From an uncultured delta proteobacterium (lineage in GTDB: Bacteria; Desulfobacterota; Desulfobacteria; Desulfobacterales; SpSt-501): a stretch of DNA of 64,000 nt. The stretch lies in contig CAVQUW010000025.1 in the NCBI GenBank assembly GCA_963716785.1, positions 70,601 to 134,600 on the forward strand. The letters are read 5' to 3'. Positions 141 to 55,950 of the stretch are shown one piece after another (positions within the stretch are counted from its first letter, which is position 1; each line of letters opens with the position of its first letter). A program made the translations under genes and the position numbers. The notes under the pieces were generated by a model, which was not told the origin of the DNA, did not search any database, and saw only the letters and a program-made list of their open reading frames with translations.

Positions 141-317
141 CTACCCGCCGGCAATGCATTTGCGGGAGCGGCGCCCGCTCTCGCGGGCGGCGATCCGGTA
201 GCACCGACGCCGGTCGGCGTGGCTCCGCGGGTTGAGGTCGCAGGCGTCCAGCCTTTCGACCAGGCGGGTGTGTTCGGCGCTGCAGCAGCGTTTGGCTTTT
301 TTGTCGATGTCCAACAT
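141..317 (-). CDS. hypothetical small basic protein (58 aa, 5 Cys including a CC pair)
   Basis: ATG at 317 is preceded by a GAGAGGTGA Shine-Dalgarno-like motif. It lies 87 nt downstream of, and co-oriented with, the Cys-rich peptide ORF. No family recognised. Confidence 0.4.
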   Translation of the reverse strand: MLDIDKKAKRCCSAEHTRLVERLDACDLNPRSHADRRRCYRIAARESGRRSRKCIAGG

Positions 318-404
318 GGCGTCACCTCTCTTCGGATATCGTCGGCACGCTCGGCCCCGGAGAACACACGGGGCCAAGCGGGCGATACGGATCAGGTGGC
401 CCGG

Positions 405-557
405 TCAGCAACAGCAGCAGTCCTCGACCGGGTGGGTGCAGGCGTCCTCCAGTGAACCCTGGTCGTCCATCGCATAGCAGCAGCAGAGGTTGGGCTCGCC
501 TGCGGCCTCTTCGTCACAAAACCTGCACTCGTTGAGATCTTCCTTGTTCGCGTCCAT
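405..557 (-). CDS. hypothetical acidic Cys-rich peptide, 50 aa (MDANKEDLNECRFCDEEAAGEPNLCCCYAMDDQGSLEDACTHPVEDCCCC)
   Basis: Internal ATG at 557 of the 405..722 ORF has a GAGGA Shine-Dalgarno 6-7 nt upstream. The peptide has 10 Cys and 14 Asp/Glu and ends TGC TGC TGT TGC TGA. No family recognised. Confidence 0.5.
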   Translation of the reverse strand: MDANKEDLNECRFCDEEAAGEPNLCCCYAMDDQGSLEDACTHPVEDCCCC

Positions 558-597
558 TTTTCCTCGCCTGTGATGGCGTCCGGTCCGATGAACAGAA

Positions 598-611: not shown

Positions 612-773
612 ATGGGTGATTGGAAAATCGACGGTCGGTCGCGGCCTCTCCTCCGGAGTCGTGTCGCATCTCGCGGGAAAAAAGAGCAGCCGCGCACCCG
701 CCTGGGCTCGTTTTACGCCCATAAATTAAGTCTGCGAACGTTTGAGGGTTTGTCAAGATGCCACGCGGCGGGG

Positions 774-1127
774 TCATTGCTGGTTCATGGCTTTTTCGGC
801 CTTCCCGGGGTTCGCAGTATCGGCCTTTACACGATGGGCCCTCCGGGGGCTTGGCTTTTCCGCGATTCGCGCCCGCACCGCCCGCAGCTGCGCGTTGACC
901 CTGCCGGCGGAGACGGCCATGACGATGGCCTGGACGGCGCCGATCTTTTCCTCCGAGAGGCCTTCTTTCCTGGCGACGCCAAGATAGTGCGCCATTCACG
1001 GGTCGCAGCCGAGGGCCATGGCGGCGGCCAGGTGCACCATCAGGGTGACGGCCGGTTCCAGGATCTCGTTGTTCCGCGCCGAATCGTAGAAGCTCACGTA
1101 GGCCTTTTGTTGTGGGTCGGGCAGCAT
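774..1127 (-). CDS. AhpD-like / carboxymuconolactone decarboxylase-family protein with in-frame TGA (candidate selenocysteine, motif C-D-P-U-M-A-H)
   Basis: ATG at 1127 has a GGAGGA RBS. 43 codons (MLPDPQQKAYVSFYDSARNNEILEPAVTLMVHLAAAMALGCDP) run into TGA at 996-998. The same frame continues MAHYLGVARKEGLSEEKIGAVQAIVMAVSAG. The TGA falls exactly where the second Cys of the family CxxC redox motif is expected. Confidence 0.65.
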
Positions 1128-1247: not shown

Positions 1248-2033
1248 CTAATCGTCCGCGATGGCGTAAAGCCGGCAGGTGTTGGCGAAGACGATGCGGG
1301 CCAGCTCCGCCGGGTCCTCGCGGCGCACCTCGGCCAGACGGGTCAGGGTCGAGCGCACGAAGGCCGGCTCGTTGCGGCGGTATCGGCGGCGCTCGGGTTC
1401 CGGCACGAGATAGGGGGCGTCGGTTTCAACCAGCAGCTGATCGGCGGGGATGTCACGGACGAGACGGCGCAAAGCCTCCCCCCGCTGCTTCTGGGTCAGA
1501 ATGCCGGTGATGCCGATAAGCCAACCCCGGTCGAGGTAGGCCGTGAGCTCGGAGCGACTGCCGCTGAAGCAGTGCACCACGGCGCGGCCGGCCGGCGGCG
1601 GGCAGGCGCCAAGCAGCTCGAGGAAGCGGCCCTCGCTGTCGCGCTCATGGAAAATGAGCGGGAGATTCAGCTCGGCGGCGATTTCGAGCTGGCGCACAAA
1701 CCAGTGTTCCTGGGCCTCCCGGGGGGAGTGCATGCGGTTGAAATCAAGTCCCGTTTCGCCCCAGGCGCGGACCTCGGGCTGTTTGGCCAGTTCGGTCAGC
1801 GCTGCCAGCACGGCCTCGCTGCACTCCCGGGCGTCGTGGGGGTGGACCCCCACGGAGGCGGTGATCCCGGTGTGCGCGCGGGCGATCGCGACCGCCCGGC
1901 GCGAGGTCGCCTCGGTCACGCCGATGGTCATCAGGCGGCTGACGCCGTCGCCACGGGCGCGCGCGATCACCTCACCCAGATCGTTTTCAAAGACCGCGTC
2001 GTCGAGGTGGCAGTGGCTGTCGAACAGTTCCAT
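1248..2033 (-). CDS. tatD: TatD-family metal-dependent hydrolase/DNase
   Basis: 261 aa. N-terminal MELFDSHCHLDD motif and length are typical of TatD. Confidence 0.9.
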   Translation of the reverse strand: MELFDSHCHLDDAVFENDLGEVIARARGDGVSRLMTIGVTEATSRRAVAIARAHTGITASVGVHPHDARECSEAVLAALTELAKQPEVRAWGETGLDFNRMHSPREAQEHWFVRQLEIAAELNLPLIFHERDSEGRFLELLGACPPPAGRAVVHCFSGSRSELTAYLDRGWLIGITGILTQKQRGEALRRLVRDIPADQLLVETDAPYLVPEPERRRYRRNEPAFVRSTLTRLAEVRREDPAELARIVFANTCRLYAIADD

Positions 2034-2233: not shown

Positions 2234-3086
2234 ATGTTCAAAATCGTCAAACGCGAGGAAATGTCCCAGGGCACCGTGGTGCTGAACGAGATCGAGGCGC
2301 CCCTGATCGCCCGCAAGGCCAAACCCGGCCAATTCGTGATCCTGAAGGCCAACGAGAACGGCGAGCGCATCCCGTTGACCATGGCCTACACCGACCCTGA
2401 AAAAGGCATCGTCGCCGTGATCTACCAGGTGGTCGGCAAGTCCACCGCGCTCTTCAAAACCCTCAAGGTGGGCGACGGCTACCAGGACGTCATCGGCCCC
2501 CTCGGCAAGCCGACCCACGTCGAGAAACTGGGCCAGGTGGTCTGTGTCGGCGGCGGCACCGGGGTGGCCGTGCTGCACCCCATCACCCGGGCGATGAAAG
2601 AAGCCGGCAACCACGTGACCGCCATCATCGGCGCCCGCACGAAAGACCTGCTCGATTCTGGAAGATCGCATGCGGGCCGCCTCCAACGAGCTCCACGTCT
2701 GTACCGACGACGGCTCCTACGGGCGCCACGGGTTCGTGACCCACGCCCTGAAGGACATCCTCGACAAGGGCAAGGTGGACCTGGTGGTCGCCATCGGGCC
2801 GGTGCCGATGATGAAGTTCGTCTGCAAGCTGACCAAGGAGTACCACACCCCCACCATGGTCAGCCTGAACCCGATCATGGTGGACGGCACCGGCATGTGC
2901 GGCGGCTGCCGGGTGTCCGTCGGCGGCAAGTCCCAATTCGCCTGTGTGGACGGGCCCGAGTTCGACGGTCACCAGGTGGATTTCGACGAGCTCATGCTGC
3001 GGCTTCAGGCCTACTGTGAAGACGAAAAGCGCTGCCACAACGAGTTCTGCATGCTGGAGGAGTCATGGCATTCAAAACACGCCTGA
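2234..3086 (+). pseudogene. nfnA: NfnA-type FAD/NAD-binding, [2Fe-2S] small subunit (sulfide/dihydroorotate dehydrogenase-like); frame broken by 1 nt near 2654
   Basis: The N-terminal part is ORF 2234.. (MFKIVKREEMSQGTVVLNEIEAPLIARKAKPGQFVILK...IGARTKDLL). It continues in ORF 2670..3086 (..EDRMRAASNELHVCTDDGS...CGGCRV...). Removing one g (ctc[g]att) restores LLILEDRM. Confidence 0.85.
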
Positions 3087-8236: not shown

Positions 8237-9329
8237 TTACTTGGCCAGCAGCACGCCTTCGATAAAGGGGTCGATGCCGCCGTCGAGCACCTCGTTGATG
8301 TTGCCGATCTCAAGGCCGATGCGGTGATCCTTGACCAGCTGGTAGGGCTGCATCACGTAGGAGCGGATCTGGCTGCCCCAGGCGATCTCCTCCTTGCCTT
8401 CGTGCATCTCCTGCAGCCGTTCCTCCTGTTTCTGCTTTTCGCGCTGGTAGAGCCGGGAGCGCAGCACCTTCATGGCCAGCTCCTTGTTGCGGAACTGGGA
8501 TTTCTCCTGCTGGCACTGCACGACGATCCCGGAGGGCAGGTGGGTGATGCGTACCGCGCTGCTGGTCTTGTTGACGTGCTGGCCGCCGGCGCCGCTGGCG
8601 CGAAAAACATCGATGCGCAGGTCCTTTTCCTCGACATCGACCACGATTTCGTTGTCGAGCTCGGGGAAGACGAACACCGAGGCGAACGAGGTGTGGCGTT
8701 TGCCGCTGGCATTGAAGGGGGAGATGCGCACCAGCCGGTGGACACCGCCTTCGGATTTCAGATAGCCGAAGGCGTTTTCCCCGGAGGCGGTGAAGGTGGC
8801 GCTCTTGATCCCGGCTTCCTCGCCGGGCTGAAAGTCGATCAGCTCGAGCGTGTAGCCTTTGCGCTCCACCCAGCGCGAGTACATGCGAAAAAGGATTTCG
8901 GCCCAGTCCTGGGCCTCGGTGCCGCCGGCGCCGGCGTTGATCGAGACGATGGCGTTTCGGCCGTCGTCCTCACCGTCGAGCATCAGCTCGAGGGCGAAAG
9001 CATCCACCTGGCGCTTGAGGCCGGAAGCCTGCTGCGCCAGATCGCGCAAGGTCTCATCGTCGGACTCCTCAAGGGCCAGCTCAAGGAGCCCCTGGTGGTC
9101 CTCGAGCTCGGCGGTCAGGCGCTTGAAACGGTCAAGGTTGCCGCTCAGGGCGGTGCGCTCCTTCAGGACGGTCTTGGCCTCGTCCGGTTTGTTCCAGAAA
9201 CCTTCCTTGGCGATCAGGGTTTCGATTTCGGCCAGGCGCTTTTCCTTGTCCGGCAGGTCAAAGACAACCTCGGAGGTTTTCAAGCTTGGCAAAGACATCC
9301 TTCAGGGTCTGTTTGATCTCGTGCGACAT
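8237..9329 (-). CDS. prfB: peptide chain release factor 2, with programmed +1 frameshift
   Basis: Frame 0 reads MSHEIKQTLKDVFAKLENLRGCL then TGA. The +1 frame continues DLPDKEKRLAEIE...SPF...GGQHVNKTSSAVRITH (GGQ motif). Confidence 0.95.
9257..9263 (-). other. prfB: RF2 autoregulatory recoding site CTT TGA C
   Basis: On the minus strand the sequence reads CGA GGT TGT CTT TGA C. An internal SD-like GAGG lies 6 nt upstream of the slippery CTT. Confidence 0.9.
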
Positions 9330-16825: not shown

Positions 16826-17059
16826 TCGGCCGTCGCGGCCCCCACGGGCCGGGGCCGGACACGGTTGACTTTTGCGGCGGATAGAATCTGACTTGCTGCA
16901 TTAGCATGGGATCGAGGCCAAACGCAAACCGAGCGGGCCGCAGGGCGTCCGGGTTGCCGGACCGGTTGCCGTGGTACTCTTGGTGACCCCCCGGCGCAAC
17001 AAACCACCAGTAGGGCGCCGGTGAACCGGGTGTATAAAACCCTTTTTCGAGGAGGGCGG

Positions 17060-18799
17060 ATGATCAATCTTCTGAGCCGCATGATCTGGGGCGTCGGGGA
17101 GGACATGCGCGGTGTTTGCACGCGGCCCTTCCTGATCGGAAAATCCGGGGACGTGGTGTACAAGGCCTTGAAGAAGCGGCTGGTCAGCGGCGCGATCCTG
17201 CTCGGAACGGTGGTGTACTTAGGCAACAAGGCCTTCGACCTGGATTTCAAGGGGCTCACCATCGCCCTGCTGACCTTGGGGGCGGCGGCCGCCGGTTTCA
17301 CGGCCCAGAAATGGGGCCGATATGTCCTCAACCGCAGCCTGAAATTTGCCGAGTCCCACGGCGCTAACCTGCTCGAGCAGATGAAGCAGAAGCGCTTCGA
17401 GCAGCGCTACCTGCCGGAGCTCTACGCGAGGGTCTACCGGCCTGAGGCGGAGGTGCTCTATCCCGCGCCGCAGCTCTCCGCGGCGGCCGAGCGCCACGAG
17501 ACTTTCTTGCGGGAGATGGTCGGCGAGCGTCTGAGGCGATACTCCGCCGACGAGGGCGTCCGCGCGCTGCTCGACCGGCACCCGGAGCGGCTCGGCAGCA
17601 TGGCCGTGCCGGGGCTTTCCGTGGCTGCCGCGCCCGGCATCGACCCGCGTTTTTTCGCCGGACCCGGGCGCGTGCGCGCCCTGATGCTGAGCGGCGCCGA
17701 GCTCGACCTGGGGGAGTATGTCGTGCGCCGCCGGGAAGTCTTGATGTCGGGGGCCGGTTTTGCGGCCGGGATCAAGTACATTCTCGCGCGCAGCGACCGG
17801 CAGCGTTACGAGCGCACCGACGCCGGCCTCGATCTGTTCTTTCTCGAAGACTACCTGGACGGGGCCCCCTTTCACCCGGGCAACACCGCCGTCATCGAGC
17901 AGGGGGCCCATGCGCTCATGCAGGAGATCGATGCGGCGGTCGGCAAACGCCCCCTGCCGGAGCGGTTGGACCGCAGCATCCAGCGGTTTTTGCAGAAGCG
18001 CTGGCACGCCACCATCACCACCTCGGTCCAGGCCAGCATCGGCAGTTTGTTACACGACCTGGTGAAGACGACCGGCGCGGAATCCCTGGCGGTCGAAGAC
18101 GTGCTCTGGCAGGACGAGGCCTCCCGCGGTCTGCTTCAGGAGAACCTGGCGGCCGAGTTCGCCCACGCGTCCGACCCCGAAGCCGCGGCCCGCGGGGTCG
18201 TGGCGGAGCTCGAGGCGGGCGGCCGCCGGATCCTGATGAAAATCTTCCACGAGACCCGCGAAAAGGGCGCGCGGGTGATCCGGCGCCAATACGGGTTCAG
18301 CGTCCAGGATTCGGTCATGCGGCGCCTGCGCTACGACCCGGAGTACGCCCTGGGCGAGCTTGAGCCGCGGCCCCTGGATGATCTGCACCGGGTCGGTGCC
18401 CCCCGGCGGGTGACGGGCCGGGCCGAAGCACTGATCGCTGCCGCGCGGGAGCTCATGGCCGGTTTCCCCGAAAGCCTGCCGGAGACGGGCTGGGCGGACT
18501 GGTGGTCGGCCTGCACGCCCGAGACCCGGCGCGCCTTGCGGGTCGCCTGTCTGATCGACCACGCGGGCTTCCGGCAGGCGTTCCGCCGCGGCCGGGCCCT
18601 CGCGCAGGCCCGGGCCATCGCCGAGCGGTTTACGGCCGAGGTTTCCCGCAATTTAAGGCGTCTGAGGCTTCACCACCAACTGGCCCTGTTTGAGTTTATC
18701 GACACCGTGGCGTTGCTCGACGAATTGGTGTACAAGAAAAGCGACTCCTTGGGTCACCCGGAAACGGATCTTTCACCACAGAGGCCTCAGAGGCCATAG
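17060..18799 (+). CDS. hypothetical protein, 579 aa, N-terminal membrane segments, no recognised domain
   Basis: ATG 17060 follows a GAGGAGGG RBS. The frame is long and uninterrupted with coding-like composition. It ends 10 nt before the MBL gene. Confidence 0.6.
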   Translation: MINLLSRMIWGVGEDMRGVCTRPFLIGKSGDVVYKALKKRLVSGAILLGTVVYLGNKAFDLDFKGLTIALLTLGAAAAGFTAQKWGRYVLNRSLKFAESHGANLLEQMKQKRFEQRYLPELYARVYRPEAEVLYPAPQLSAAAERHETFLREMVGERLRRYSADEGVRALLDRHPERLGSMAVPGLSVAAAPGIDPRFFAGPGRVRALMLSGAELDLGEYVVRRREVLMSGAGFAAGIKYILARSDRQRYERTDAGLDLFFLEDYLDGAPFHPGNTAVIEQGAHALMQEIDAAVGKRPLPERLDRSIQRFLQKRWHATITTSVQASIGSLLHDLVKTTGAESLAVEDVLWQDEASRGLLQENLAAEFAHASDPEAAARGVVAELEAGGRRILMKIFHETREKGARVIRRQYGFSVQDSVMRRLRYDPEYALGELEPRPLDDLHRVGAPRRVTGRAEALIAAARELMAGFPESLPETGWADWWSACTPETRRALRVACLIDHAGFRQAFRRGRALAQARAIAERFTAEVSRNLRRLRLHHQLALFEFIDTVALLDELVYKKSDSLGHPETDLSPQRPQRP

Positions 18800-28822: not shown

Positions 28823-29609
28823 CTACGGTGACAGGGCGCCGTGCGGTTTAAGCTCATAGCGGAGCGGCACCCGGACCCACATCGAGATTGTCTGATCCCC
28901 CCTGCGGGCGGGTTTGAACACCCAGTCCTTGACGGAGCGCACCGCCGATTCGTCCAGAATCGTGTGCCCGCTTGAAGACACCAGCCTCACGGTATCGACC
29001 CCGCCGGTCCGGTTGACCAGGACTTCCAGGAGAACGACCCCCTCATACCCCAATTGCCGGGCCCTCCGCGGGTATTCCAAGGCGCGGTTCTTCCCGTATT
29101 CGGGTTCCGCCTCCTCCAGCACCGGCGCGGGAGGGCTTGGCCCGGACGGTGCGACCGGCGCACTCGTCGGCCCCGTGGTGGGGACCGGCGGGGTGGAAGC
29201 GCGGCGGTCGTGGTCCGGACCGGGTTCCTCCGCGGGCACGGGGGCAGCCGGTGCGGGCGGGGGCGGGTCCGCAGGCTCTGGCGCCGCCTGCCGGACAACC
29301 GGGGGAGTGGTTTTTTTCACGGCCTTGACCGGCCTTGGCGCCACGGCGGGGACAGGGGCAGGGGCGGGGGCGACCGGCGCCGCTGGGGGGTTCGACGGCG
29401 GGCGCACCGGGGCCGTAAGCGGGAGCTCCGGAGGCGGGGAGAGGCGCCGTGGCTCGAGCGGACCGCGGAGGGGGCGGGTTCAGCAGAATCGTGACCGCCT
29501 CGGGCGCCGGCGGACGCGGGGGCCGGGAGCCCCCGCGGTCGAGGTCCTGGGTGAGCAGGAAGATGTGTATCCCGACGGCGATGGCGGCGGCCGCGGCAAG
29601 GCGTTTCAC
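28823..29609 (-). pseudogene. tonB: TonB energy transducer; 1-nt frame break in the Pro-rich linker (29400-29480)
   Basis: GTG 29609 overlaps the exbD stop (GTGA). The N-terminal TM (KRLAAAAAIAVGIHIFLL) is in one frame. The Pro-rich region and C-terminal domain (YPRRARQLGYEGVVLLEVLVNRTG) are in the +1 frame. The span is 787 nt, not a multiple of 3. Confidence 0.8.
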
Positions 29610-30016
29610 GGCGTTGGACCCGGCTCGGCCTGGAGCGATACGCGACCGAGCCCGGCGTGGCGGATCCGGTCCAGGACCTCGAAAAGGTTTTGGGTGCTGA
29701 GGTTTCGGTCGGCGAACAGCAGCACACCCGGAACGCGCTCCGCCTGGGCGCGCGCTTGCAGGGCGGCGGTCAGATCCGGGAGCGCCACCGCCACGCGGTC
29801 GATGAACACGGACCCGTCCGCCTTGACGGTGACGGTCAGGGTGACCTCCGCCTCGGTTTCGGCCGCATCCGAGGCGGGCAGGTGGACCGGCAGCCCGCGA
29901 TGGACCGTCATCGAGAGCATGGCGACCATGAAAAAGACCAGGAGCAGAAACAGCATGTCCATCAGGGGGATCATTTCGATGCGGACCCGTTTCCTGGCCG
30001 GCACTTTGATTTTCAT
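29606..30016 (-). CDS. exbD: ExbD/TolR biopolymer transport protein
   Basis: 136 aa with the MIPLMDMLFLLLVFFMV TM segment. Confidence 0.9.
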   Translation of the reverse strand: MKIKVPARKRVRIEMIPLMDMLFLLLVFFMVAMLSMTVHRGLPVHLPASDAAETEAEVTLTVTVKADGSVFIDRVAVALPDLTAALQARAQAERVPGVLLFADRNLSTQNLFEVLDRIRHAGLGRVSLQAEPGPTP

Positions 30017-30031
30017 CGACGCACCCCCGGG

Positions 30032-30641
30032 TCAGTCCTTCTGGACCTTTTTTTCGTAGACGATCTCGAGACTGGTGGCATACTTTTCGATGCGCAGCGC
30101 CGCCCTCTCGCACAGGGAATCGAAGAAGTTGTAAGGGATGACCGACAGGATCGCGATCGCAAGCCCGGCCGCGGTGGTGATCAGGGCCTGGGCGATCCCG
30201 GCGGTGACCTCCACCGGGCGCTCGATCCCGGTGGTCGCCGAGCACCTCGAAGGAGTGAATGATCCCGGTGACCGTGCCGAAAATCCCGAGCAGCGGCGCG
30301 ACCGTGATCATGGTGTCCAAAACGCCCATGAAGCGCCGCATGCGCCTGATCTGGTCGGCCGCGGCCGATTCCATGGCCTTGGTCATGGAAAAGTCCCGGT
30401 GCAGGATCCCGGTGACGATGATCTTGAGGGCATAGTCCCGGGTGCCGGCGGTCTTGAGCCGGATGGCCTCCCAGTCCGCCGATTCACACAGGGCCATGAC
30501 CTCGTTCAGCAGCGCCGCGTCGCTCCGCCGGTGGATGGTCCACCAGAAGATCGCCCGCTCCACGACCACCGTCAGCGCCGCCAGCGAGCAGGCCAGGAGC
30601 GGGACCATCACCGGCCCGCCGCGCACAAACAATTCCCACAT
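30032..30641 (-). pseudogene. exbB: ExbB/MotA/TolQ proton channel; 1-nt frame break near 30237
   Basis: ATG 30641 with a GGGAGGGAG RBS. The frame reads ..GIFGTVTGIIHSFEVLG, then the continuation TTGIERPVEVTAGIAQALITTAAGLAIAILSVIPYNFF is in another frame. Removing one g restores it. Confidence 0.85.
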
Positions 30642-30663: not shown

Positions 30664-32718
30664 CTAAAATACGACCCGCATCCCGAAAACGTAATTGCGC
30701 TCCGGGGCCGGGTAAAAGTTGGTCTGGAGCGGTGTGCTGCCGATGACCGCATACTCGGAGTATTGCTCGTCGGTCAGGTTGTTCACACCGGCAAACACCC
30801 GCAGCATCTTCCACTCGTAGGAGAGCTTCAGGTCCAGGGTGAAGTAATCGTCCAGTTTTTCGAACTGGTTTTCGAAGTCGCTGACGGCATAGCTCGCCCC
30901 ATAGTAATTGAGGTCGGCCGCCAGCTCCACCCCCGGCAGGACATCGAAGATGCGCAGCCCGAAATTGGCGCGGTGGCGCGGGACCGCGGGGATGTCCTCC
31001 CCGTCGTAGGGGTCTTTTTCAAAGGTGGCTTGCTCGTAGGTGTAGTTCCCGACCAGGGCCAGATGACGGAACACCTCCGCCCGGGCCCCCAGCTCGAACC
31101 CCTGGTGGAGGGTCTTGGGGTGGTTTTCGTTGGTGAATACCGGGCGGTTGAAGAAGATTTCATCTTCGATTTCAGCCCGGAACACGGTCAGATTGGCCCT
31201 GAGCTTCGGGGTGAAGTAGTGGCGCAGCCCGATCTCGTAGTGGATCCCGGTCTGGGGTTTGAGGTCCGGGTTCACCCGGATCTGCCCGGTGGTGAAGTCG
31301 TAGACCACCAGCTCGTCCACCAGGGGGAACCGGAAACTGCGGTTGACCCGGGCGAAGGCCGAGGAGTTCTGGCCGTACAAAAAGGTCAACCCGGCGTGGT
31401 AGGCGTTCTCCGAGTCGGAGTGGGACTCGTTCAAGGGGGCCAGGGGAAAGGCGCTCAGGTCCTTGACGTCGAAGTCGTAGCGCACCTGCTCGTAGCGGGC
31501 GCCCAGGGTGATCAGAAGGTTGTTCAGCACGTAGAACTCGTTGTTGACATAGGGGCCGATCGTGTCCCGGTCCACATCCGAGATGCCGGTCGGCGAGGAG
31601 GGCAGCGGGGAGAAGAACCCCGAATAGGATTTGTTGTCCTGGTGGGTCTGGTACAGGTCGACCCCCGCGATCAGCTTGTTGGTGCGGTTGAAAACGGATC
31701 CCTGCCACACGTAGCGCGGTGTGAACGCCACGGTTTCGGTGTCGAAGTCGTTTTTATAAGGGAAGAAGGCGTCCGGGAACTTGGAGTCCCCGGAGCGGTC
31801 CCGATAGGAGACATCGGCCACGAGCTGCCCGTAGGACCCGACGTCCCAGTCGAATCCGGCCTTGAGGAAATAGTCCTGGGTGCTGCCCTCGTCCTCCGGG
31901 TTGACGCTCTGCTGGCGGTCGGATTTCACTTCCGCCTTCGTCAGCGCCCCCGGCAGGCCGAAGCGGTCCTCGTGGTAGGAGCCGGAGAGGTTGACCCGGA
32001 ACCGGTCCGTCGCATCCAGGGTGACCCTGCCGCCGAAATCCTCCGTGCTCAGGTCGTTGTTCTCCCGGTACCCGTCGCTTTCCGAGCGGCTGCCGTAGAT
32101 CGAAAAGGCGGTCTTGTCGACCCCGCCGCCGGCATGGGCGTCGACCTTGAAGCGGTCATAGCTGCCGAGGGTGACCCCGCCGCCGGCATTGAACTGGCGG
32201 GACGGGGACTTGGTGATGATGTTGATGACCCCCGCCACGGCGTTGTCCCCGTAAAGCACCGACCCGGGCCCGCGGACGACCTCGATCCGCTCGATCTGCT
32301 CGACCGGGATCTGGGCCCAGTCCGTGCCGCTCAGGTCGATTTCGTTGACACGGCGGCCGTCCACCAGAACCAGGGTGTTCGAGGCGGCGGTCTCGCCGAA
32401 CCCGCGCAAATCGACCTGGGCCGCCTTGCCGTTTCCGAGCAGGTCCCGGACGACGACGCCCTCTTCACGGCGCAAGAGGTCCACGGCGGTCTTGGCATTC
32501 GAGCGCCGGATCTCATCGGCGCCGATGACGCTGACGCTGGCGGGAACCCGCTGGATTTCCTCGGCGGTCCGGGTGCCGGTCACGACCACCTCCGGCATCA
32601 TGGCGGGCGCGGGTTCGGCGCCGCGCTCCGTCTGGGCCAGAGCGGCCAAAGGGCGGAACAGCATCGTGATCACGAGGACGGCCATCCACTTCTTCTGCAT
32701 TGCAACACTCCTTTTCAA
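30664..32718 (-). CDS. TonB-dependent outer-membrane receptor (cobalamin-type by operon context)
   Basis: 684 aa: signal peptide, plug domain (VVVTGTRTAEEIQRVPASVSVI), beta-barrel, C-terminal ..NYVFGMRVVF. Confidence 0.9.
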   Translation of the reverse strand: MKRSVAMQKKWMAVLVITMLFRPLAALAQTERGAEPAPAMMPEVVVTGTRTAEEIQRVPASVSVIGADEIRRSNAKTAVDLLRREEGVVVRDLLGNGKAAQVDLRGFGETAASNTLVLVDGRRVNEIDLSGTDWAQIPVEQIERIEVVRGPGSVLYGDNAVAGVINIITKSPSRQFNAGGGVTLGSYDRFKVDAHAGGGVDKTAFSIYGSRSESDGYRENNDLSTEDFGGRVTLDATDRFRVNLSGSYHEDRFGLPGALTKAEVKSDRQQSVNPEDEGSTQDYFLKAGFDWDVGSYGQLVADVSYRDRSGDSKFPDAFFPYKNDFDTETVAFTPRYVWQGSVFNRTNKLIAGVDLYQTHQDNKSYSGFFSPLPSSPTGISDVDRDTIGPYVNNEFYVLNNLLITLGARYEQVRYDFDVKDLSAFPLAPLNESHSDSENAYHAGLTFLYGQNSSAFARVNRSFRFPLVDELVVYDFTTGQIRVNPDLKPQTGIHYEIGLRHYFTPKLRANLTVFRAEIEDEIFFNRPVFTNENHPKTLHQGFELGARAEVFRHLALVGNYTYEQATFEKDPYDGEDIPAVPRHRANFGLRIFDVLPGVELAADLNYYGASYAVSDFENQFEKLDDYFTLDLKLSYEWKMLRVFAGVNNLTDEQYSEYAVIGSTPLQTNFYPAPERNYVFGMRVVF

Positions 32719-32744
32719 AATGCGGTTCGGGTTGACTGGTAGGG

Positions 32745-33536
32745 TTATTGGAATTTGCCGGGCACCAGGGTGACCCGGGGCAGCCCGCCGAAAGGGCTCT
32801 CATCCACCATCACCCGGCAGCCGTAGGCCGCCTCCAGGTCCCGGGGCGTCAGCACCTCCGCGGGCAGGCCCATGCGGGCGACCCGGCCATTGCCGAGCAG
32901 CAGCAGCCGGTCGGCGTACATGGCCGCCAGGTTGACGTCGTGGGAGACCATGACCACGGTCAGCGCCTTTTCCCGTTTCAGGCGCTCCATCAGGTCCATC
33001 AGCCGGATCTGGTGCGAGAGGTCGAGCGATGCGGTGGGCTCGTCGAGGAGGAGAATTTCCGGCTCCTGGCACAGGGCCCTCGCGATCGAGACCCGCTGCT
33101 GCTCCCCGCCGCTCAATTGATCGAGCTTGCGCGCGGCGAGGTGCTCCACCGCGGTCGTGGTCATGGCCTGACCGGCGGCCGTAAGATCGATCGCCCGCGG
33201 CAGGCCGAGCACGTTCTGGTGGGGCGCGCGTCCGAGCAGGACGGCTTCCGCGACCGTGAACGGGAAACTCACCTCCAGGGACTGAGGCACATAGGCGATC
33301 CTGCGTGCCAGGGACCGGTGCGAATAGCCGCGGATGTCCTTCCCGAACACCCTGATCCGCCCCGGCCCGGTCTTCAGAAGGCCGCAGATCAGCTTCATCA
33401 GGGTGGTTTTGCCGGAGCCGTTCGGCCCGATGATGACGAAAAAGTCGCCGGCGCCGATCGCGAGGCTCACGTCGTTGAGCACCGGCCGGCCGTCGAAGGC
33501 ATGGCTCAGGTTGTCGATTTCCACAGCCGTCTTCAT
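32745..33536 (-). CDS. btuD: ABC transporter ATP-binding protein (FecE/BtuD type)
   Basis: 263 aa with Walker A GPNGSGKTT, LSGGEQQR and LLLDEP. ATG 33536 overlaps the permease stop. Confidence 0.9.
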   Translation of the reverse strand: MKTAVEIDNLSHAFDGRPVLNDVSLAIGAGDFFVIIGPNGSGKTTLMKLICGLLKTGPGRIRVFGKDIRGYSHRSLARRIAYVPQSLEVSFPFTVAEAVLLGRAPHQNVLGLPRAIDLTAAGQAMTTTAVEHLAARKLDQLSGGEQQRVSIARALCQEPEILLLDEPTASLDLSHQIRLMDLMERLKREKALTVVMVSHDVNLAAMYADRLLLLGNGRVARMGLPAEVLTPRDLEAAYGCRVMVDESPFGGLPRVTLVPGKFQ

Positions 33537-34543
33537 TGCCGGGTCTTCTTGAGCAGCAGGATGAACAGAGGCGCCCCGACCAGGGCGGTGATCACGCCGG
33601 CCGGCATTTCGCCCTGCTGCGGGAGCGTGCGCGCCATCAGGTCGCAGAGCACCAGATACGCCCCGCCCCCCAGGACGCAGGCCGGCACCAGGACCCGATG
33701 GTCCGGGCCCCAGACGAACCGCAGCAGATGCGGGATCACCAGGCCGACAAAGCCGATCAGCCCGCTGTAGCTGACGATGGCGCTCACCATCAGGGAGGTG
33801 ACCACCAGCAGGGCCACGGTCGCCGATTTGAGGTGCAGCCCCATGCTGCGCGCCATCTCGTTGCCCATGAGCAGGAGGTTCATCGCGTGGGAAAAAAGGA
33901 AAATGACCCCGAAACAGGGGACCAGAACCAGGGCGAGGATCGCGACGGTCGCCCCGTCGGCCGAGGAAAGGTCGCCCATCAACCAGAAGATGATGTTGTG
34001 CAGCCGGGCATCCTGGGTCATCGACACCAGGAACATGATGACCGCCGCGCAGAAGGCGTTCACCATGACCCCCGAGAGCAGCAGGGCATCTTTTTTCAAC
34101 ACGGTCCGGCCGGAGGACATCGTCACGATCAGCACCAGGGTGGCCAGGCTTCCCAGAAAGGCGCAGGAGGTCACCCCGGGGAAGCGCGACAGCCCGAGCA
34201 GGATGCCGATAATGGCGCCGATGGCCGAACCGCCGGAAATCCCGAGGATGTAGGGCTCCGCCAGGGGGTTGCGCAGCAGGGCCTGGAACACGAGACCGCC
34301 GAGCGAGAGCGCCCCCCCGGTCAGGGCCGCCAGGAGCACCCGGGGCAGGCGGATGCGAAAGACGATGGTCTCGAGCGCCGGGTGCGCCTCCCCGGTTCCC
34401 AGCAAGGCGGCGAGCGAGGCGCGGACCCCTTCGCTGCCCGAGCCGCTGGAGAGACCCAGGGCAAGGGCGGCCGCCAGGACGAGGGACAGGGACGCCGCGG
34501 CCAGCAGGAGGCGCGTGATCAGCGGCCGGGAGGACACCGTCAT
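33533..34543 (-). CDS. btuC: FecCD/BtuC-family ABC permease
   Basis: 336 aa. ATG 34543 overlaps the btuF stop (ATGA). The multi-TM FecCD pattern is present. Confidence 0.9.
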   Translation of the reverse strand: MTVSSRPLITRLLLAAASLSLVLAAALALGLSSGSGSEGVRASLAALLGTGEAHPALETIVFRIRLPRVLLAALTGGALSLGGLVFQALLRNPLAEPYILGISGGSAIGAIIGILLGLSRFPGVTSCAFLGSLATLVLIVTMSSGRTVLKKDALLLSGVMVNAFCAAVIMFLVSMTQDARLHNIIFWLMGDLSSADGATVAILALVLVPCFGVIFLFSHAMNLLLMGNEMARSMGLHLKSATVALLVVTSLMVSAIVSYSGLIGFVGLVIPHLLRFVWGPDHRVLVPACVLGGGAYLVLCDLMARTLPQQGEMPAGVITALVGAPLFILLLKKTRQ

Positions 34544-35451
34544 GGCGCACCTCCGAAAATTTCCGGGTGGATGAATCGCGCGAGCTGCTCGAGCCCCTCC
34601 ACGAGCCGCGGGGACGGTCGGTCGAAGAGGTCCGAGTCGACGAGGTGGATGCGGCCGTCGCGGACGGCCGGGACACCCGGCCAGCGGCCCCACTCCCGCC
34701 GGGTCTGCTCGATCGAACCGCTCCGGTCCATGGAGCTGATGACGATCACCTCGGGGGCGAGGGCCAGCACCTGCTCGCGGCTGTAGCGCGGGTAGGCGGC
34801 GGGGCCGGCGGTGACGTTGCTCCCGCCGGCCAGGCCGATCAGTTCGTGGGCGAAGGTGTGGGTCCCGACGGAGACGATCGGGGCGTCGCCGATCTGGAAG
34901 AACACGCGCGGCCGGTGGCCCACCCCGGCGAGGCGGGCCGTGACCTGCTCGATCCGAAAGCGCATGTCCCGGGCCAGGCCCTCGGCCCGCTCCTCGGCGT
35001 CGAGCACGGTGCCCATGGCGAGAACGGCCTGAATGACCGTGGGCACGCTGCGCGGGTCGAGCGCGTAGACCGCCACCCCCAGTGCCTCGAGCCGGTCGAC
35101 CGTCGCCTTCGGGTTGCCGTCCTTGACGGCGATGCACAGGTCGGGTCGCAGGGCGATGATGCGCTCGAGGTCGAGGCGAACGTAGGAGCCGACTTTCGGC
35201 AGGCGCGCCGCGGCCGGCGGGAAATTGCTGTAGGTGGTCACGCCGCTCAGGCGCTGCTCCTGCCCGAGGGCGAAGACGATTTCGGTGATGCTGGGCGCCA
35301 GCGACACGACCCGTTGCGGGGCGTCGGGGACCTCCACCGTGCGCCCGGTCTGATCGATCAGCGTTTTGGCCTCCGCCGGGTCGCAGGGCAGGAAGGTGAG
35401 CGCGGCGACGGCCGCCGCGATTCGCATCATTGTGGTGAACGGGTTTTGCAT
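34540..35451 (-). CDS. btuF: periplasmic cobalamin/siderophore-type binding protein (BtuF-like)
   Basis: 303 aa. Signal peptide, then the RVVSLAPSITEIVFALG motif typical of class III binding proteins. Confidence 0.85.
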   Translation of the reverse strand: MQNPFTTMMRIAAAVAALTFLPCDPAEAKTLIDQTGRTVEVPDAPQRVVSLAPSITEIVFALGQEQRLSGVTTYSNFPPAAARLPKVGSYVRLDLERIIALRPDLCIAVKDGNPKATVDRLEALGVAVYALDPRSVPTVIQAVLAMGTVLDAEERAEGLARDMRFRIEQVTARLAGVGHRPRVFFQIGDAPIVSVGTHTFAHELIGLAGGSNVTAGPAAYPRYSREQVLALAPEVIVISSMDRSGSIEQTRREWGRWPGVPAVRDGRIHLVDSDLFDRPSPRLVEGLEQLARFIHPEIFGGAP

Positions 35452-35494
35452 CGATCGTCCCCGGCGGCGCCGGCCCGGGACGCGGCGCCGCCGA

Positions 35495-35536
35495 ATAAAA
35501 AAATCCCGGACCGAAATTGACTCGATCCGGGATTCG
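35495..35536 (-). terminator. riboswitch expression-platform terminator
   Basis: On the minus strand: AATCCCGGAtcgagtcaatttcgGTCCGGGATTTTTTTA, between the aptamer and the btuF start. Confidence 0.7.
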
Positions 35537-35574
35537 GAAAAACACCAGACGATCGTCGAACAATTCTCGGTCCA

Positions 35575-35775
35575 CGGAGATGCAGCGATCGTTCAGGCAG
35601 GTCTTCTGACTCCCCTCCCGTTGCAGCGGCCTTCCCGCACCCGGACTTCAGTGCAGTGGCGTTTCGAGGCTGAAACGGTCCTTGCGGCACCATGCGGTGC
35701 CAAAGGAGAGGGTCACAGCGGCGGGCCCGTCCTCGATTCTCACGAGGTTCCCTTTTAAGCTCCGGGTTTGGCGGG
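35575..35775 (-). promoter_or_regulatory. cobalamin (B12) riboswitch
   Basis: The minus strand carries AAAAGGGAACCTCGTGAGAATCGAGGACGGGCCCGCCGCTGTGACC, then GCCACTGCACTG...GGGAAGGCC, then the B12 box AGTCAGAAGACCTGCC (plus-strand 35596-35611). Confidence 0.85.
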
Positions 35776-35921
35776 AATCGTCGCCAAGGCGGCGATTCCG
35801 GGCGGCGCGCGGCCGCAAACCCGTTGGAGCGCCTGAACCTAATTCGGTCCAATAGACCGGGTGGGGATGAAAATCAAGCAAAAAAATCCAGGTGCCCGAG
35901 CGACCGGGTGCGGTGACACGC

Positions 35922-42285: not shown

Positions 42286-42335
42286 TTATTTTCGTCGGAA
42301 CTCCACCAGGGTCAGTATCCTTATTTTCAGACCCC

Positions 42336-42420
42336 GCCGCCCGCGCTGCCGCCGCCGGGAACGGGGTCGGCGGAGGCGGTTTTAGCGAGATAGTCTGTAG
42401 GGCTCGACTTTTCAGTACAT
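42336..42420 (-). pseudogene. degenerate 5' fragment of a cyclodeaminase-family gene (paralogous to 48032..48649)
   Basis: About 80 nt align to 48573-48650 at roughly 70 percent identity (..TDYLAKTASADPVPGGGSA..). The fragment carries an indel and an early stop. Confidence 0.6.
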
Positions 42421-42435
42421 TTACGCTTCTCAGTT

Positions 42436-42674
42436 AAGTTTGTCAAAGACGAGATGTCGATGGGTTTGATACCGGATTTCGCGGACGAGGTCTTCGATCT
42501 GGTGAAAGAACCGAACCGCGACGGGATGACGGTGCACCTGGTCGAGCGGAATGCAAAGAAGGTCCAGGCCGTGGCCGACCGGACCTATGTCCTCAAGACC
42601 GGCCGCATCGTGCTCCACGACAGCGCCGAGAACCTGGCAAGAACCCCGAGATCCAGAAGGCCTACCTCGGCGGA
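42436..42674 (+). pseudogene. 3' fragment of a LivF-type ABC ATPase gene
   Basis: It reads DEMSMGLIPDFADEVFDLVKEPNRDGMTVHLVERNAKKVQAVADRTYVLKTGRIVLHDSAENLA then, after a frameshift, NPEIQKAYLGG. Walker A and the rest of the N-terminal half are missing. Confidence 0.7.
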
Positions 42675-42693
42675 TGCCCCAAAGTTTTTGTTC

Positions 42694-43102
42694 CTACAAT
42701 GCTGTCCAAATCTGGATATAAAGAGCGTTTTCAGTGGTACCCAGAGAAAGTTTTGACTTTCAGGTTCTGTTTGAGAGCTTTAAAAAACAACTCGATCTGC
42801 CAGCGGTCTTTGTAGATGGCGCCGATGGTGCTGGCGGCAAATTCAAAGTGGTTGGTCAGCAGGGTGATCGACTTGCCGCTCACAGGGTCGATGGCCACGA
42901 TGCGCCGCAGAGGAAACGGGCATTTTTGTTGGGCTTTTTCGGCGGCTAACACGATGGTCCCATCGCTGTCCGACGAATACCAGCAAACCGCAACAAATCT
43001 GCAATTCCCCGAATCGATACCTTTGATCAGGTAATCTCCACCCCGTTTTGTCACAGGCAAGGATTCGACATAGGCACGAATGTCAACCCGGAAGAGAGCC
43101 AA
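42694..43102 (-). mobile_element. IS4-family DDE transposase remnant (internal fragment, frameshifted, both ends missing)
   Basis: ..AIYKDRWQIELFFKALKQNLKVKTF then, in a shifted frame, GTSENALYIQIWTAL*. There is no N-terminal half and I found no inverted repeats. Confidence 0.75.
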
Positions 43103-43166
43103 CCCAAGTTTTCCATCTACTATTGTCAGAACCCCTTATGCGTCCAATCGTCCGTATCGATTTATG

Positions 43167-43196
43167 TTGACATGTCAAAATCAACCATAGTATGAA
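43167..43196 (+). promoter_or_regulatory. candidate sigma70 promoter (TTGACA-18 nt-TATGAA); the -35 lies in the 12-nt palindrome TTGACATGTCAA
   Basis: Read directly from the sequence. It lies immediately upstream of the riboswitch. Confidence 0.5.
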
Positions 43197-43205
43197 AAAA
43201 GGACG

Positions 43206-43320
43206 ATAAAGGGGAGTAGCAATTGGCGGTCATTTCCGCCACCCCGCGTTTCGTCAATACGGAAGGGTCACCTCCCGGACGCGGGTAGCGATTTCACTTC
43301 GCGATTTGCAAGACCTTTAT
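43206..43320 (+). promoter_or_regulatory. yybP-ykoY (Mn2+) riboswitch
   Basis: The 5' conserved AAAGGGGAGTAGC and the 3' conserved TTTGCAAGACCTTTAT match the yybP-ykoY signature (compare the L. lactis yoaB leader). The length of about 115 nt fits. Confidence 0.8.
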
Positions 43321-43360
43321 TCGCAGATTCACTGCGCTGCGGATAAAGGTCTTTTTTTTT
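43310..43360 (+). terminator. riboswitch-coupled intrinsic terminator
   Basis: AAGACCTTTAT...ATAAAGGTCTT followed by T9. The 5' arm overlaps the 3' strand of aptamer P1. Confidence 0.8.
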
Positions 43361-43516
43361 GGCATTCTTTCCGCGGCGGCAAATAAGGCAAGAGATTTCT
43401 TCGAAGCCGATACATAGATCCGCCAAACCAGCACTATCGGCCGGACCAGGATCGACAATTTTCTCCCAATAACGCGGGCTGGTTCGCACATCTTTACAGA
43501 AACGGAGTGTAATCAC

Positions 43517-46246: not shown

Positions 46247-46320
46247 GTCGATAGTCGGTAAAGTCTGCAAGCGGCCATAGAGCGACCCAAGGAACGAACC
46301 ACTGAGCCTGAAATAAACTT

Positions 46321-46608
46321 TCAGAATCGGACTTCTCCATTTCTGGTGACTAACTCACTCTTCGGAAGTTCGGGCTCAGTGGCTCGGTGTTGCCTGAGTT
46401 TAAAGTTATAAGGATGAAAACGTGGGAGATACCCCTCTAAACTTCTAAGCAGGTCGATTCCAAAAAAGCAGATGGTTGGTGCTCGAAACACTGGTGGCTT
46501 TAATCGTTGTCGCTGTTGATTTGTTTTTTTGCAAACAAAAACCTGAATAAGGCCATGTCTTGCGAGCAAATACTTTTTGCTTAAGATCATGGATTCACCC
46601 ATCCGCAA
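46321..46608 (-). CDS. hypothetical protein (possibly a gene remnant)
   Basis: 95-aa ORF in the low-GC mosaic. No recognised motif and no convincing RBS. Confidence 0.2.
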   Translation of the reverse strand: MRMGESMILSKKYLLARHGLIQVFVCKKTNQQRQRLKPPVFRAPTICFFGIDLLRSLEGYLPRFHPYNFKLRQHRATEPELPKSELVTRNGEVRF

Positions 46609-46764
46609 TAAGCAATGAGGTTTTTTCGGCTTACGACTTTAGGATAGGGTGACATTTAACACTCTCAGAGATTTTTAGCTCCTGTCAACTGGAATAATAG
46701 ATGTGGCAATCCAGTTCGTTTGCGCGTCATTTCGTATTTCCCCCAACGGTAATGGGGTCTAATT

Positions 46765-47262
46765 ATGCAATTTCCTTATTGTGATGCGCTGAAAAAAAAA
46801 GCAATCCATTGGTCTGTGCTCGTAGCGATTGCACTGGCCGTTTTCGTTTGCGCTGGGTGCTCATACAAAATCGCCCTAATTCCACGTGACGGAGGACAAT
46901 CGTCCACATCAACCTTAAGAATAGAATCTATCGGGGAAGCTTTTAGTGGGCCGATTGAACTCATTGTGGATGGATTGAAATACAGAGGGACATATGTCGC
47001 CTCACTGAACGACTACGGCTTTACGCTTCTCAAAAAATACTGCCCCCGGGATGCGGATGTGTCGCGAGAACACTCAGACTGGTATGGCCAAGCCACCTTG
47101 AAAGAACCCTGGGGCCGAATACTTCAGTGTGAATACCAAGGCAGTTCATCAAAAGGGGGGTATGGGGTGTGCGTAAGCAGTGAAGGGGAGGTTTATGACA
47201 TGATTATTTCGAAATGGATCTTCTCCGAGTTGGTTGAGTCGAAAGGGGGAAATGTGATGTGA
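46765..47262 (+). CDS. hypothetical lipoprotein
   Basis: 165 aa. Signal peptide with lipobox (AVFVCAGCS). Low-GC codon usage is consistent with its island context. Confidence 0.55.
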   Translation: MQFPYCDALKKKAIHWSVLVAIALAVFVCAGCSYKIALIPRDGGQSSTSTLRIESIGEAFSGPIELIVDGLKYRGTYVASLNDYGFTLLKKYCPRDADVSREHSDWYGQATLKEPWGRILQCEYQGSSSKGGYGVCVSSEGEVYDMIISKWIFSELVESKGGNVM

Positions 47263-47344
47263 TATCAAGAAGAATGGACATCCGGAATCTCCGAGGATAT
47301 AGGTTGATTTGCGAGAAAAACCATATCCGAGAAGGAGGCCAGCG

Positions 47345-47476
47345 ATGTCCAGTGTTTCTATATCACGCTATTTCCCCTTTCGTCGAATCACAATTACCAA
47401 ACAGGTGGTCAATGATACCGCCTCAGAAGCCCTGATTGAAGCTGTTCCCGACCGACGCTTTCACCTTATTCATTGA
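47345..47476 (+). CDS. hypothetical 43-aa protein (MSSVSISRYFPFRRITITKQVVNDTASEALIEAVPDRRFHLIH)
   Basis: The ATG is preceded by a strong GAAGGAGG RBS at optimal spacing. The ORF is below the cutoff of the supplied ORF track. Confidence 0.3.
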   Translation: MSSVSISRYFPFRRITITKQVVNDTASEALIEAVPDRRFHLIH

Positions 47477-47551
47477 CCATAAAGGTTTCGATCCACTTCA
47501 AGGCCCATAATTAGGTGGCCTTACACAAAAAATGCAGTGGGGTAGAAAGAT

Positions 47552-47671
47552 TTGAACCGCAAAAGCGAGCGCATTCCCCGCCGCTTGCGACGGTGTTAGC
47601 GAGCGAATCCAAAAACGACCCCATTCCTTACGGTCGAAGATTCCCCGCAGCTTGCTGTGGGGAGATTCAAT
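47552..47671 (+). repeat. 120-nt dual-hairpin element, family B, partly decayed copy
   Basis: 109/120 identical to 22443-22562 with no gaps. 9 of the 11 differences fall in the first 51 nt, and 7 of them disrupt pairs of the first hairpin. The 3' 69 nt differ at only 2 positions. Confidence 0.8.
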
Positions 47672-47770
47672 TGTAGATTATCCATGAGATCCGACTTACA
47701 ATAGGTACTTTATATTCGGTGATATTTTTAAATGCTGAAATTGCTTAATTTTACATTCAGTGGCGTTTTG

Positions 47771-47983
47771 TCACGAAATTCGATGAAATGGCCACTTGAT
47801 CTGAAATTCAACCTCTTCTCCAGACATCCCGCGCTCATGTTCGATGTTGATGACGGCGTCGGGGGGTATCGAAATCCGCTCCCCTGCCACCTGAATCCGA
47901 AAAGGCCTACCTTGTTGCGGCGATTGAAGCCACCCGGCCTCCGCCTTTGACGGGGGAGGTCGGCGTGGGGGTTTGCAATCCAA
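47771..47983 (-). CDS. possible AbrB/SpoVT-like small DNA-binding protein (orphan antitoxin-like); start unclear
   Basis: FRIQVAGERISIPPDAVINIEHERGMSGEEVEFQIKW resembles the looped-hinge-helix pattern (G..v.IP..v...lg...Gd.v.f). There is no ATG and no partner toxin ORF. Confidence 0.25.
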   Translation of the reverse strand: MDCKPPRRPPPSKAEAGWLQSPQQGRPFRIQVAGERISIPPDAVINIEHERGMSGEEVEFQIKWPFHRIS

Positions 47984-48031
47984 CGCCCCTTGTCGTTCAT
48001 GGCCGGCAGACTCGGCTTTTTTACTGCTGCC

Positions 48032-55807: not shown

Positions 55808-55950
55808 GAAAAAATTAAACATCTTTGAAAGTCAAGTTTTTGGAAGCGCGTCACGCTTGACGACAAGATCTGAGGCATCCGATCCCGTGAGGTCCGGCAA
55901 AAAAAATCCTCGCCCCGGTGGGCGAAAAAATAAAGAGGAGAAAGCAGGCA

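Follow-up and report, generated by a model that had tools for sequence, protein, structure and literature searches.

The locus at positions 774-1127 on the minus strand of the DNA analyzed here, a stretch of 64,000 nucleotides from contig CAVQUW010000025.1 of an uncultured delta proteobacterium (in the following the window), raises the question whether a TGA in the middle of a small AhpD-like gene ends the protein or is decoded as selenocysteine (Sec). Read on the minus strand, the frame starts with an ATG at 1127-1125, which is preceded at a distance of 7 nt by the Shine-Dalgarno sequence AGGAGG (1135-1140, read directly from the sequence), and runs through 43 sense codons with the last residues AAAMALGCDP to a TGA at 998-996. 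Behind this codon another 73 in-frame codons (MAHYLGVARKEGLSEEKIGAVQAIVMAVSAG...) lead to the terminal stop codon TGA at 776-774. An earlier examination of this DNA by eye, which we call the sequence-only reading, had described the same succession of ribosome binding site, ATG, 43 codons, TGA and in-frame continuation, and each of these elements was found where it had been placed. We assign a probability of about 0.9 to the interpretation that the locus is one intact gene, which encodes a 117-residue single-domain selenoprotein of the carboxymuconolactone decarboxylase (CMD)/AhpD fold with UGA as codon 44 and a Cys41-Asp-Pro-Sec44 redox center, likely a thiol/selenol-disulfide oxidoreductase. 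The public annotation contains the 73-residue C-terminal fragment alone (P0001, on a contig of 287,665 bp).

Conservation of the TGA codon and of the frame behind it

A homologue search over 5.8 billion proteins yielded 96 sequences that span the TGA and are 60-77% identical to the window protein. At the TGA column 82 of them have Cys, ten are recorded with W, and four (P0001, P0092, P0095 and P0096) are fragments that start or end exactly there. Together with Cys41 (codon TGC, 1005-1007), the first residue of the C-x-x-U motif and an invariant column in both alignments A1 and A3, codon 44 makes up a pair of the C-x-x-C type. The proposal of the sequence-only reading that Sec takes the second position of the CxxC motif, which it had wished to see confirmed by an alignment to Cys-containing homologues, is thus borne out by the 82 Cys sequences. 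The underlying DNA was readable for three of the fragments (P0092, P0095 and P0096) and three of the W proteins (P0032, P0064 and P0066), and all six records have TGA at this position.

The ten database entries with W at this column (P0032, P0052, P0063, P0064, P0066, P0068, P0072, P0074, P0075 and P0088) might suggest that the organism reads TGA as Trp or Gly by a nonstandard genetic code. These calls go back to gene callers that used a code with TGA as Trp, and the three readable records have TGA there and are translated beyond the real stop as well, a second TGA. In the window, TGA terminates 32 of the 54 coding-like frames, including genes with complete Pfam matches and the selenoprotein gene itself, and its G+C content of 64.6% is unlike that of the known TGA-recoded lineages. 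We regard a changed genetic code as the least probable of all explanations considered.

Scanning one genome per species with the Sec-type alignment revealed 73 recognizable loci, 71 of which have TGA at the equivalent of codon 44. A further scan, of metagenomes and with Cys forms as seeds, raised the total to 145, comprising 114 loci with TGA, 99 of them distinct in sequence, and 31 with TGC or TGT. The TGA-carrying loci span at least 10 phyla, and according to the record titles the carriers include Desulfobacterota, Acidobacteriota, Gemmatimonadota, Chloroflexota and Fidelibacterota as well as Zixibacteria, Bacteroidota/Ignavibacteria, Nitrospinota and Thermoleophilia. The precedent named in the sequence-only reading was therefore correct insofar as AhpD-like selenoproteins are real (PMC1088965, PMC2398784), but the assumption that they are mainly deltaproteobacterial does not agree with this distribution. 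The nearest relative of the window gene, locus L001, is syntenic, 87-89% identical and shares the TGA.

To judge the coding capacity on both sides of the UGA, substitutions were counted by codon position in all pairs of 70 loci, using 37 codons after the UGA and 38 codons before it. The shares of codon positions 1, 2 and 3 are 23%, 12.5% and 64% downstream, indistinguishable from the 25%, 12.5% and 62% upstream, and the downstream segment is free of stop codons in all 70 loci. In the comparison with L001, one difference past the UGA falls on codon position 1, one on position 2 and five on position 3; the selenoprotein gene is therefore without any sign of decay.

These data bear directly on the explanation that the TGA is a nonsense mutation and the locus a pseudogene of an ordinary Cys-form CMD gene, which is what the truncated 73-residue open reading frame (ORF) of the public annotation and the presence of other disrupted genes in the window would lead one to expect. 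Against it stand the occurrence of TGA at exactly the same codon in 114 loci from many phyla, which makes an origin of the TGA forms as assembly artefacts implausible over independent projects, the bias toward third-position substitutions that persists past the TGA, and a covarying hairpin specific to TGA forms (see below). A genuine stop looks different, as can be seen at 405-407, where the linker downstream of the TGA has lost this bias (13, 14 and 14 differences to L001 by codon position). We consider a nonsense mutation very improbable.

The hairpin downstream of the UGA and its decoding

Directly past the UGA the mRNA can form a hairpin (968-984, minus strand), which we interpret as the core of a bacterial Sec insertion sequence (SECIS). 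The stem strand UCUUGGC (984-978) pairs with GCCAGGA (974-968) and is closed by a GUC loop (977-975); the stem begins 11 nt and the loop 18 nt past the UGA, and the hairpin alone has a minimum free energy (MFE) of -8.0 kcal/mol. The published model of bacterial SECIS elements (bSECIS) describes a loop of 3-9 nt, a stem of 4-16 bp, a distance of 16-37 nt from the UGA to the loop, an MFE of at most -7.5 kcal/mol and a G at loop position 1 or 2, with G or U as the usual next base (PMC13188914). With 3 nt, 7 bp, 18 nt, -8.0 kcal/mol and a loop starting with GU, the window hairpin lies within all five limits. This is the hairpin CUUGGC-GUC-GCCAGG of the sequence-only reading, extended by one U-A pair, and for a second pairing proposed there, GGCGC..G(U)CGCC with a bulged U, support was not found. 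Folding the region downstream of the UGA, as had also been suggested, gave an unremarkable result when the window sequence was considered alone (z = -1.26 for the 71-nt segment that follows the UGA), and it is the comparison across loci that brings out the signal.

Over 67 distinct sequences, 98.5% of the cells of the stem are paired and four of the seven pairs show compensatory changes, with CG in 56 and UA in 10 sequences at pair 15-31, CG in 33, UA in 30 and UG in 4 at pair 16-30, GC in 62 and AU in 5 at pair 19-27, and UA in 66 and CG in 1 at pair 18-28. The covariation score amounts to 0.324 versus 0.197 for shuffled data, none of 500 shuffles reached the observed value, and sliding the partner strand by 1-3 columns as a control lowered the pairing to 18-58% of the cells. 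Since several of the paired positions are synonymous sites, namely third bases of Tyr, Gly and Ala codons, a constraint on the protein cannot account for the pairing pattern.

The Cys forms served as a negative control. On average, 2.74 of the seven pairs can form in the 27 distinct Cys forms, compared with 6.92 of seven in the 99 distinct TGA forms, and the synonymous sites of the stem are fixed in the TGA forms only. For Leu in the stem, for example, the TGA forms use CTT or TTT; CTG, the choice of 22 of the 27 Cys forms, never occurs in them, and the Ala codon is GCC in 92 of the 99 TGA forms. The hairpin even dictates the peptide that it encodes, which reads Y-[LF]-G-V-A-[KR] in the Sec forms and Y-L-G-Q-x-E-K in the Cys forms. 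By every comparative criterion applied, these sequence comparisons demonstrate that the predicted recoding signal works.

The window copy bears the full Sec-type signature (Leu CTT, Gly GGC, Val, Ala GCC and Arg AGG; peptide YLGVARK), which speaks against a single miscalled base in this codon. A substitution error in sequencing or assembly, with TGC or TGT as the true codon, could be suspected as at least one neighboring gene of this assembly contains a single-base indel. This gene, which encodes a DHODB-type Fe-S/FAD subunit (2234-3086, plus strand) and adjoins a GltD-like gene, is frameshifted by an extra G at 2654; its orthologue in L001 is intact and 91% identical, and the extra G is probably an assembly indel. 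The errors seen are indels and not substitutions, the Cys forms lack the signature found here, and L001 has the same TGA, so that we give a miscalled base just as little credit as a nonsense mutation. The DHODB-like gene also agrees with the contrast drawn in the sequence-only reading, according to which the other broken genes of the window differ from this locus in being disrupted by an indel and not by a stop codon.

Compared with the SECIS of the E. coli fdhF type, the window hairpin has the same position directly past the UGA within the coding sequence and an apical loop starting with G and then U, and both fit the consensus bSECIS model (PMC13188914). It differs in its unrelated sequence, in its small size (7 bp and a 3-nt loop) and in being built from the codons for Tyr-Leu/Phe-Gly-Val-Ala-Lys/Arg, which, unlike in the fdhF type, forces a peptide specific to the Sec forms. 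In a scan of the whole window for in-frame TGA codons with coding-like composition on both sides, four sites were found, two of them with a SECIS-type hairpin. Of these two, the selenoprotein codon passes the codon-position test and the site at 405-407 fails it.

Following the established bacterial mechanism, translation would start at the ATG at 1127 and reach the UGA at 996-998, where the hairpin 11 nt further on, with its 7-bp stem and GUC loop, would act as bacterial SECIS and recruit SelB-GTP-Sec-tRNA(Sec). Sec would be inserted and translation would proceed to the TGA at 774-776, which has no such hairpin and would terminate.

Several observations weigh against this interpretation. Rfam gave no SECIS match, neither in a permissive search of the locus nor in a search of the whole window at the gathering threshold; its matches were at chance level, apart from a cobalamin riboswitch elsewhere in the window. 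The assembly contains indel errors and its sequence quality is imperfect. Finally, no selA, selB or selD domains were detected with Pfam in essentially all coding-like frames of the 64-kb window, and no tRNA-Sec was found in it; the tRNA scan of the window gave no tRNA at all. A tRNA-Sec scan of 60 related loci was negative as well, but carries no information. The absence of these genes from the window is what one would expect if the gene is intact and the host has lost its Sec machinery, which would make the locus a recent relic that yields the 43-residue peptide only. On the other hand, 64 kb are far too small for the absence of four unlinked genes to count, the hairpin is perfect with seven of seven pairs and the GUC loop, and the downstream frame is open and shows no decay relative to L001. 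A host that has lost Sec decoding therefore seems improbable to us, if somewhat less so than a mutated or miscalled codon, and we infer that the organism is capable of decoding UGA as Sec.

Fold, redox center and relatives

With Sec written as Cys, residues 7-85 of the protein match the Pfam family CMD (PF02627) over profile positions 4-83 of 84 with 42.2 bits (cutoff 23) and E = 8e-11. In NCBIfam, three curated selenoprotein families gave the best partial matches, each through its AhpD-like domain: MduS (NF045649), ArsM_AhpD_UU (NF041537) and GSU3128 (NF041047). For MduS, residues 4-109 align to the C-terminal AhpD-like domain with E = 1e-13 and 51.1 bits, compared with a full-length cutoff of 380; for ArsM_AhpD_UU, the same residues align to the AhpD-like domain with E = 4e-10 and 38.9 bits (cutoff 510), and for GSU3128 the score is 22.8 bits (cutoff 110). 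Because none of the three scores comes near its full-length cutoff and the AhpD-like domain alone aligns, the window protein is, judged by its sequence, a relative of the AhpD-like domains of these families that stands outside all three. MduS and ArsM_AhpD_UU, which were reportedly defined by Haft and Tolstoy in 2025, both carry CxxU, and relatives of the window gene directly follow a stand-alone arsM; the window protein differs from them in that it has neither a methyltransferase domain nor an adjacent arsM. In another of the loci, L003 (949-1896), the stop of a UbiE-type methyltransferase gene directly abuts an AhpD-like frame containing a TGA, and this arrangement is probably an MduS-like methyltransferase fusion with two Sec residues that was called as three ORFs.

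A family model was built with AlphaFold for the Cys homologue P0002, which is 64% identical to the window protein, using alignment A3. The model (pLDDT 89.2) consists of four helices with the C-x-x-C motif at the N-terminus of the third. In a Foldseek search with this model against the PDB, the top 32 matches were all members of the CMD/AhpD family, the best being 3bey with a TM-score of 0.64-0.73; the closest structures are 3bey, RclX (7y4r), TM1620 (1vke) and, more remotely, AhpD of Mycobacterium tuberculosis (1gu9). This is in line with the sequence-profile search, in which 3bey was matched with E = 2e-9. The nearest solved relatives, O27018 of Methanothermobacter (3bey), RclX (7y4r) and TM1620 (1vke/1p8c), have about 96-133 residues and six chains in each deposited entry. 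In contrast to the window protein they have CxxC with the canonical His, none of them is a selenoprotein, and their functions are largely unknown.

The comparison with AhpD proper is of particular interest for the chemistry. AhpD uses a relay of the form Glu...C-x-x-C-x-x-x-His, in which both Cys and the His are invariant among AhpD-like proteins (PMC3141380). The His position, four residues past the second Cys, corresponds in the present family to a nearly invariant Tyr, Tyr48 in the window protein, which aligns with the His of 3bey. The CxxC(x2-3)H arrangement suggested in the sequence-only reading relied on His47, which lies in a variable column with H, Y, S, E or N across the homologues, and it cannot be maintained. 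As the relay His is replaced by Tyr, the chemistry may differ from that of AhpD, a further point against our interpretation as far as the function is concerned. The window protein thus resembles AhpD in fold and redox pair without being an AhpD proper. With M. tuberculosis AhpD (1knc/1gu9) and the AhpD-like PA0269 it shares the all-helical CMD fold and the CxxC at a helix N-terminus; M. tuberculosis AhpD has about 175 residues compared with 117 in the single-domain window protein, the Foldseek E-values of the family model to AhpD are weak (0.24-0.9), and the relay residue differs as described. Furthermore, no AhpC/peroxiredoxin domain was detected in the Pfam scan of the 64-kb window, which leaves the gene without the ahpC neighbor of AhpD, and none occurs among the 30 commonest neighbor clusters of the 145 loci.

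In M. tuberculosis AhpD, the exposed residue Cys133 forms the cross-link to AhpC, Cys130 being partly buried, and the roles of the two residues are possibly reversed in Burkholderia AhpD, which makes the analogy uncertain (PMC6626918). Since the second Cys (Cys133) of the M. tuberculosis protein attacks AhpC, Sec44 would by analogy occupy the exposed attacking position, and not that of the resolving Cys as had been assumed in the sequence-only reading. The product is most likely a thiol/selenol-disulfide oxidoreductase that would cycle between the selenolate/thiol and the selenenylsulfide state.

The window contains a second CMD-family gene at 55891-56337 (plus strand, Pfam E = 5e-24) with a WGHIWTRPGL motif, which is followed by a gene for a 4Fe-4S protein at 56715-57947. 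It was considered as a paralogue of the selenoprotein gene and rejected as unrelated, since it has no CxxC/U motif.

Proteins of this kind have been described in selenoproteome surveys since 2005, as CMD domain-containing protein with CXXU in the Sargasso Sea survey (PMC1088965), as AhpD-like 2 (pfam02627, CxxU) in the Global Ocean Sampling survey (PMC2398784) and as CMD-like protein (PF02627, CxxU) in a 2026 review (PMC13188914). The survey proteins have in common with the window protein the Pfam domain, a CxxU with Sec in second position, Cys-containing homologues and a SECIS-like hairpin past the UGA with a G in a small apical loop. Compared by description, the window gene likely belongs to the same subfamily as the AhpD-like 2 proteins. 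It differs from them in its origin from an uncultured lineage with 64.6% G+C and in its context of a TatD-family gene and Cys-rich orphan genes.

Gene neighborhood and a possible metal(loid) role

The gene upstream of the selenoprotein gene encodes a TatD-family protein (1248-2033, minus strand; Pfam TatD_DNase, E = 5e-73). It is co-oriented and 120 nt away, a promoter-like match at 2099-2127 lies upstream of it, and the neighbor is retained in the syntenic L001. Co-transcription of both genes is possible. About 70 nt past the stop codon of the selenoprotein gene, a consensus scan located a terminator-like hairpin with a T run (685-702, minus strand), which is weak evidence, as the three terminator-like sites in the region are not above the 2.2 expected from shuffles.

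Two tiny Cys-rich genes follow directly downstream in one shared frame (141-560, minus strand). The first encodes a 50-residue peptide, MDANKEDLNEC...NLCCCY...HPVEDCCCC, and ends with the TGA at 405-407; it is followed by 28 codons, which form a strongly folding spacer of 85 nt, and then by the second part, MLDIDKKAKRCC...KCIAGG. The RNA past this TGA even satisfies the bSECIS constraints, and the codon was considered as a second Sec codon. This idea was rejected: the differences to L001 in the 28-codon linker are evenly distributed, in contrast to the two flanks, where position 3 predominates (9, 6, 18 and 11, 6, 22), a conserved Shine-Dalgarno-like GAAGAGAGGTG lies ahead of the second tiny gene's ATG, and the sole homologue of the frame in the protein databases (L001/P0097), a single ORF of 137 residues, has TGG at this codon and thus Trp and not Cys. 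We therefore favor a true stop between two tiny genes that are separated by a structured spacer.

A different picture emerges from the neighbors of all 145 loci, which were clustered, the commonest being named above the curated NCBIfam cutoffs. They include HgcA (457 bits, cutoff 275), HgcB (131 bits, cutoff 99), an arsenite methyltransferase, ArsM (375 bits, cutoff 263), ACR3 (382 bits, cutoff 283) and an ArsR/SmtB regulator (102 bits, cutoff 55). Among the 100 loci with enough upstream sequence, 36 have at least one of HgcA, HgcB, ArsM, ACR3 and ArsR within 3.6 kb, and these genes usually lie on the same strand, 25-150 nt upstream of the gene for the small AhpD-like protein (mini-AhpD). Linkage to hgcAB is found, for example, in L003, L015, L039, L046, L062, L088-L095, L098-L100, L121 and L142, and linkage to arsM in L019, L025, L035, L038, L045-L047, L051, L056, L061, L066 and L068. 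hgcAB or acr3 precedes 20 of the 31 Cys forms, the arsM-linked copies are all TGA forms (20/20), and in 19 further TGA forms a DDAH-like gene, which scores below the NCBIfam cutoff, is located upstream. The linkage to ArsM agrees with the fusion families in NCBIfam. A literature search gave no paper that ties hgcAB to a CMD/AhpD neighbor; the work of Haft and Tolstoy (2025) was outside this search.

The context of the family points to a service for systems that handle thiophilic metal(loid)s, namely arsenite methyltransferase, HgcAB and ACR3. It is conceivable, though we advance it as a tentative proposal that is more likely wrong than right, that the mini-AhpD subfamily specifically assists metal(loid) methylation and efflux systems, acting as a redox or metal-handover partner. 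Such a protein may restore the reduced state of the catalytic cysteines in ArsM, or it may bind As(III) or Hg(II) and deliver or release them, including at HgcAB. The window locus itself and L001 speak against this idea, as both are without hgcAB, arsM or acr3 neighbors and the gene follows a TatD-family gene; the proposed role therefore rests on the relatives.

Some further features of the window were recorded. A cobalamin riboswitch (35579-35791, minus strand; Rfam RF00174, 69 bits) is located upstream of a gene for a periplasmic binding protein (34543-35592), and nearby are a TonB-dependent receptor (30667-32799), ExbB/ExbD (29609-30307) and TonB (28826-29479), so that the whole looks like a B12 uptake cluster. 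Its ExbB gene (30035-30307, minus strand) matches the C-terminal third of the Pfam profile only. An island of low G+C content (42286-48645; 0.55 compared with 0.65 for the window) contains a fragment of a DDE transposase and a gene for a P-type cation ATPase of 942 residues (43418-46243, plus strand) and was probably acquired horizontally. Two long coding-like ORFs, at 50833-54006 (minus strand, 1058 residues) and 16892-18796 (plus strand, 635 residues), gave no Pfam match at E <= 1e-5. The gene for release factor 2 (8240-9301, minus strand) consists of 354 open codons without a start codon at the 5' end; presumably, its first ~25 codons are encoded in a different frame and joined by a programmed +1 frameshift of the prfB type.

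For the annotation of this organism, the consequence is that a selenoprotein of 117 residues replaces the 73-residue fragment in the public record, and the gene marks its host as a probable user of Sec. For the family as a whole, it follows that the CxxU/CxxC mini-AhpD subfamily is mostly Sec-containing in at least 10 phyla, and that public gene calls for its CxxU members are systematically wrong, as they either split the ORF or insert W under the wrong code. If the accessory role holds true, the window copy would be a variant deployment of a metal(loid) accessory module beside Cys-rich orphan genes. The recurrent placement of its relatives behind hgcAB, arsM and acr3 offers a lead on how mercury and arsenic methylation systems stay reduced or are supplied with substrate.

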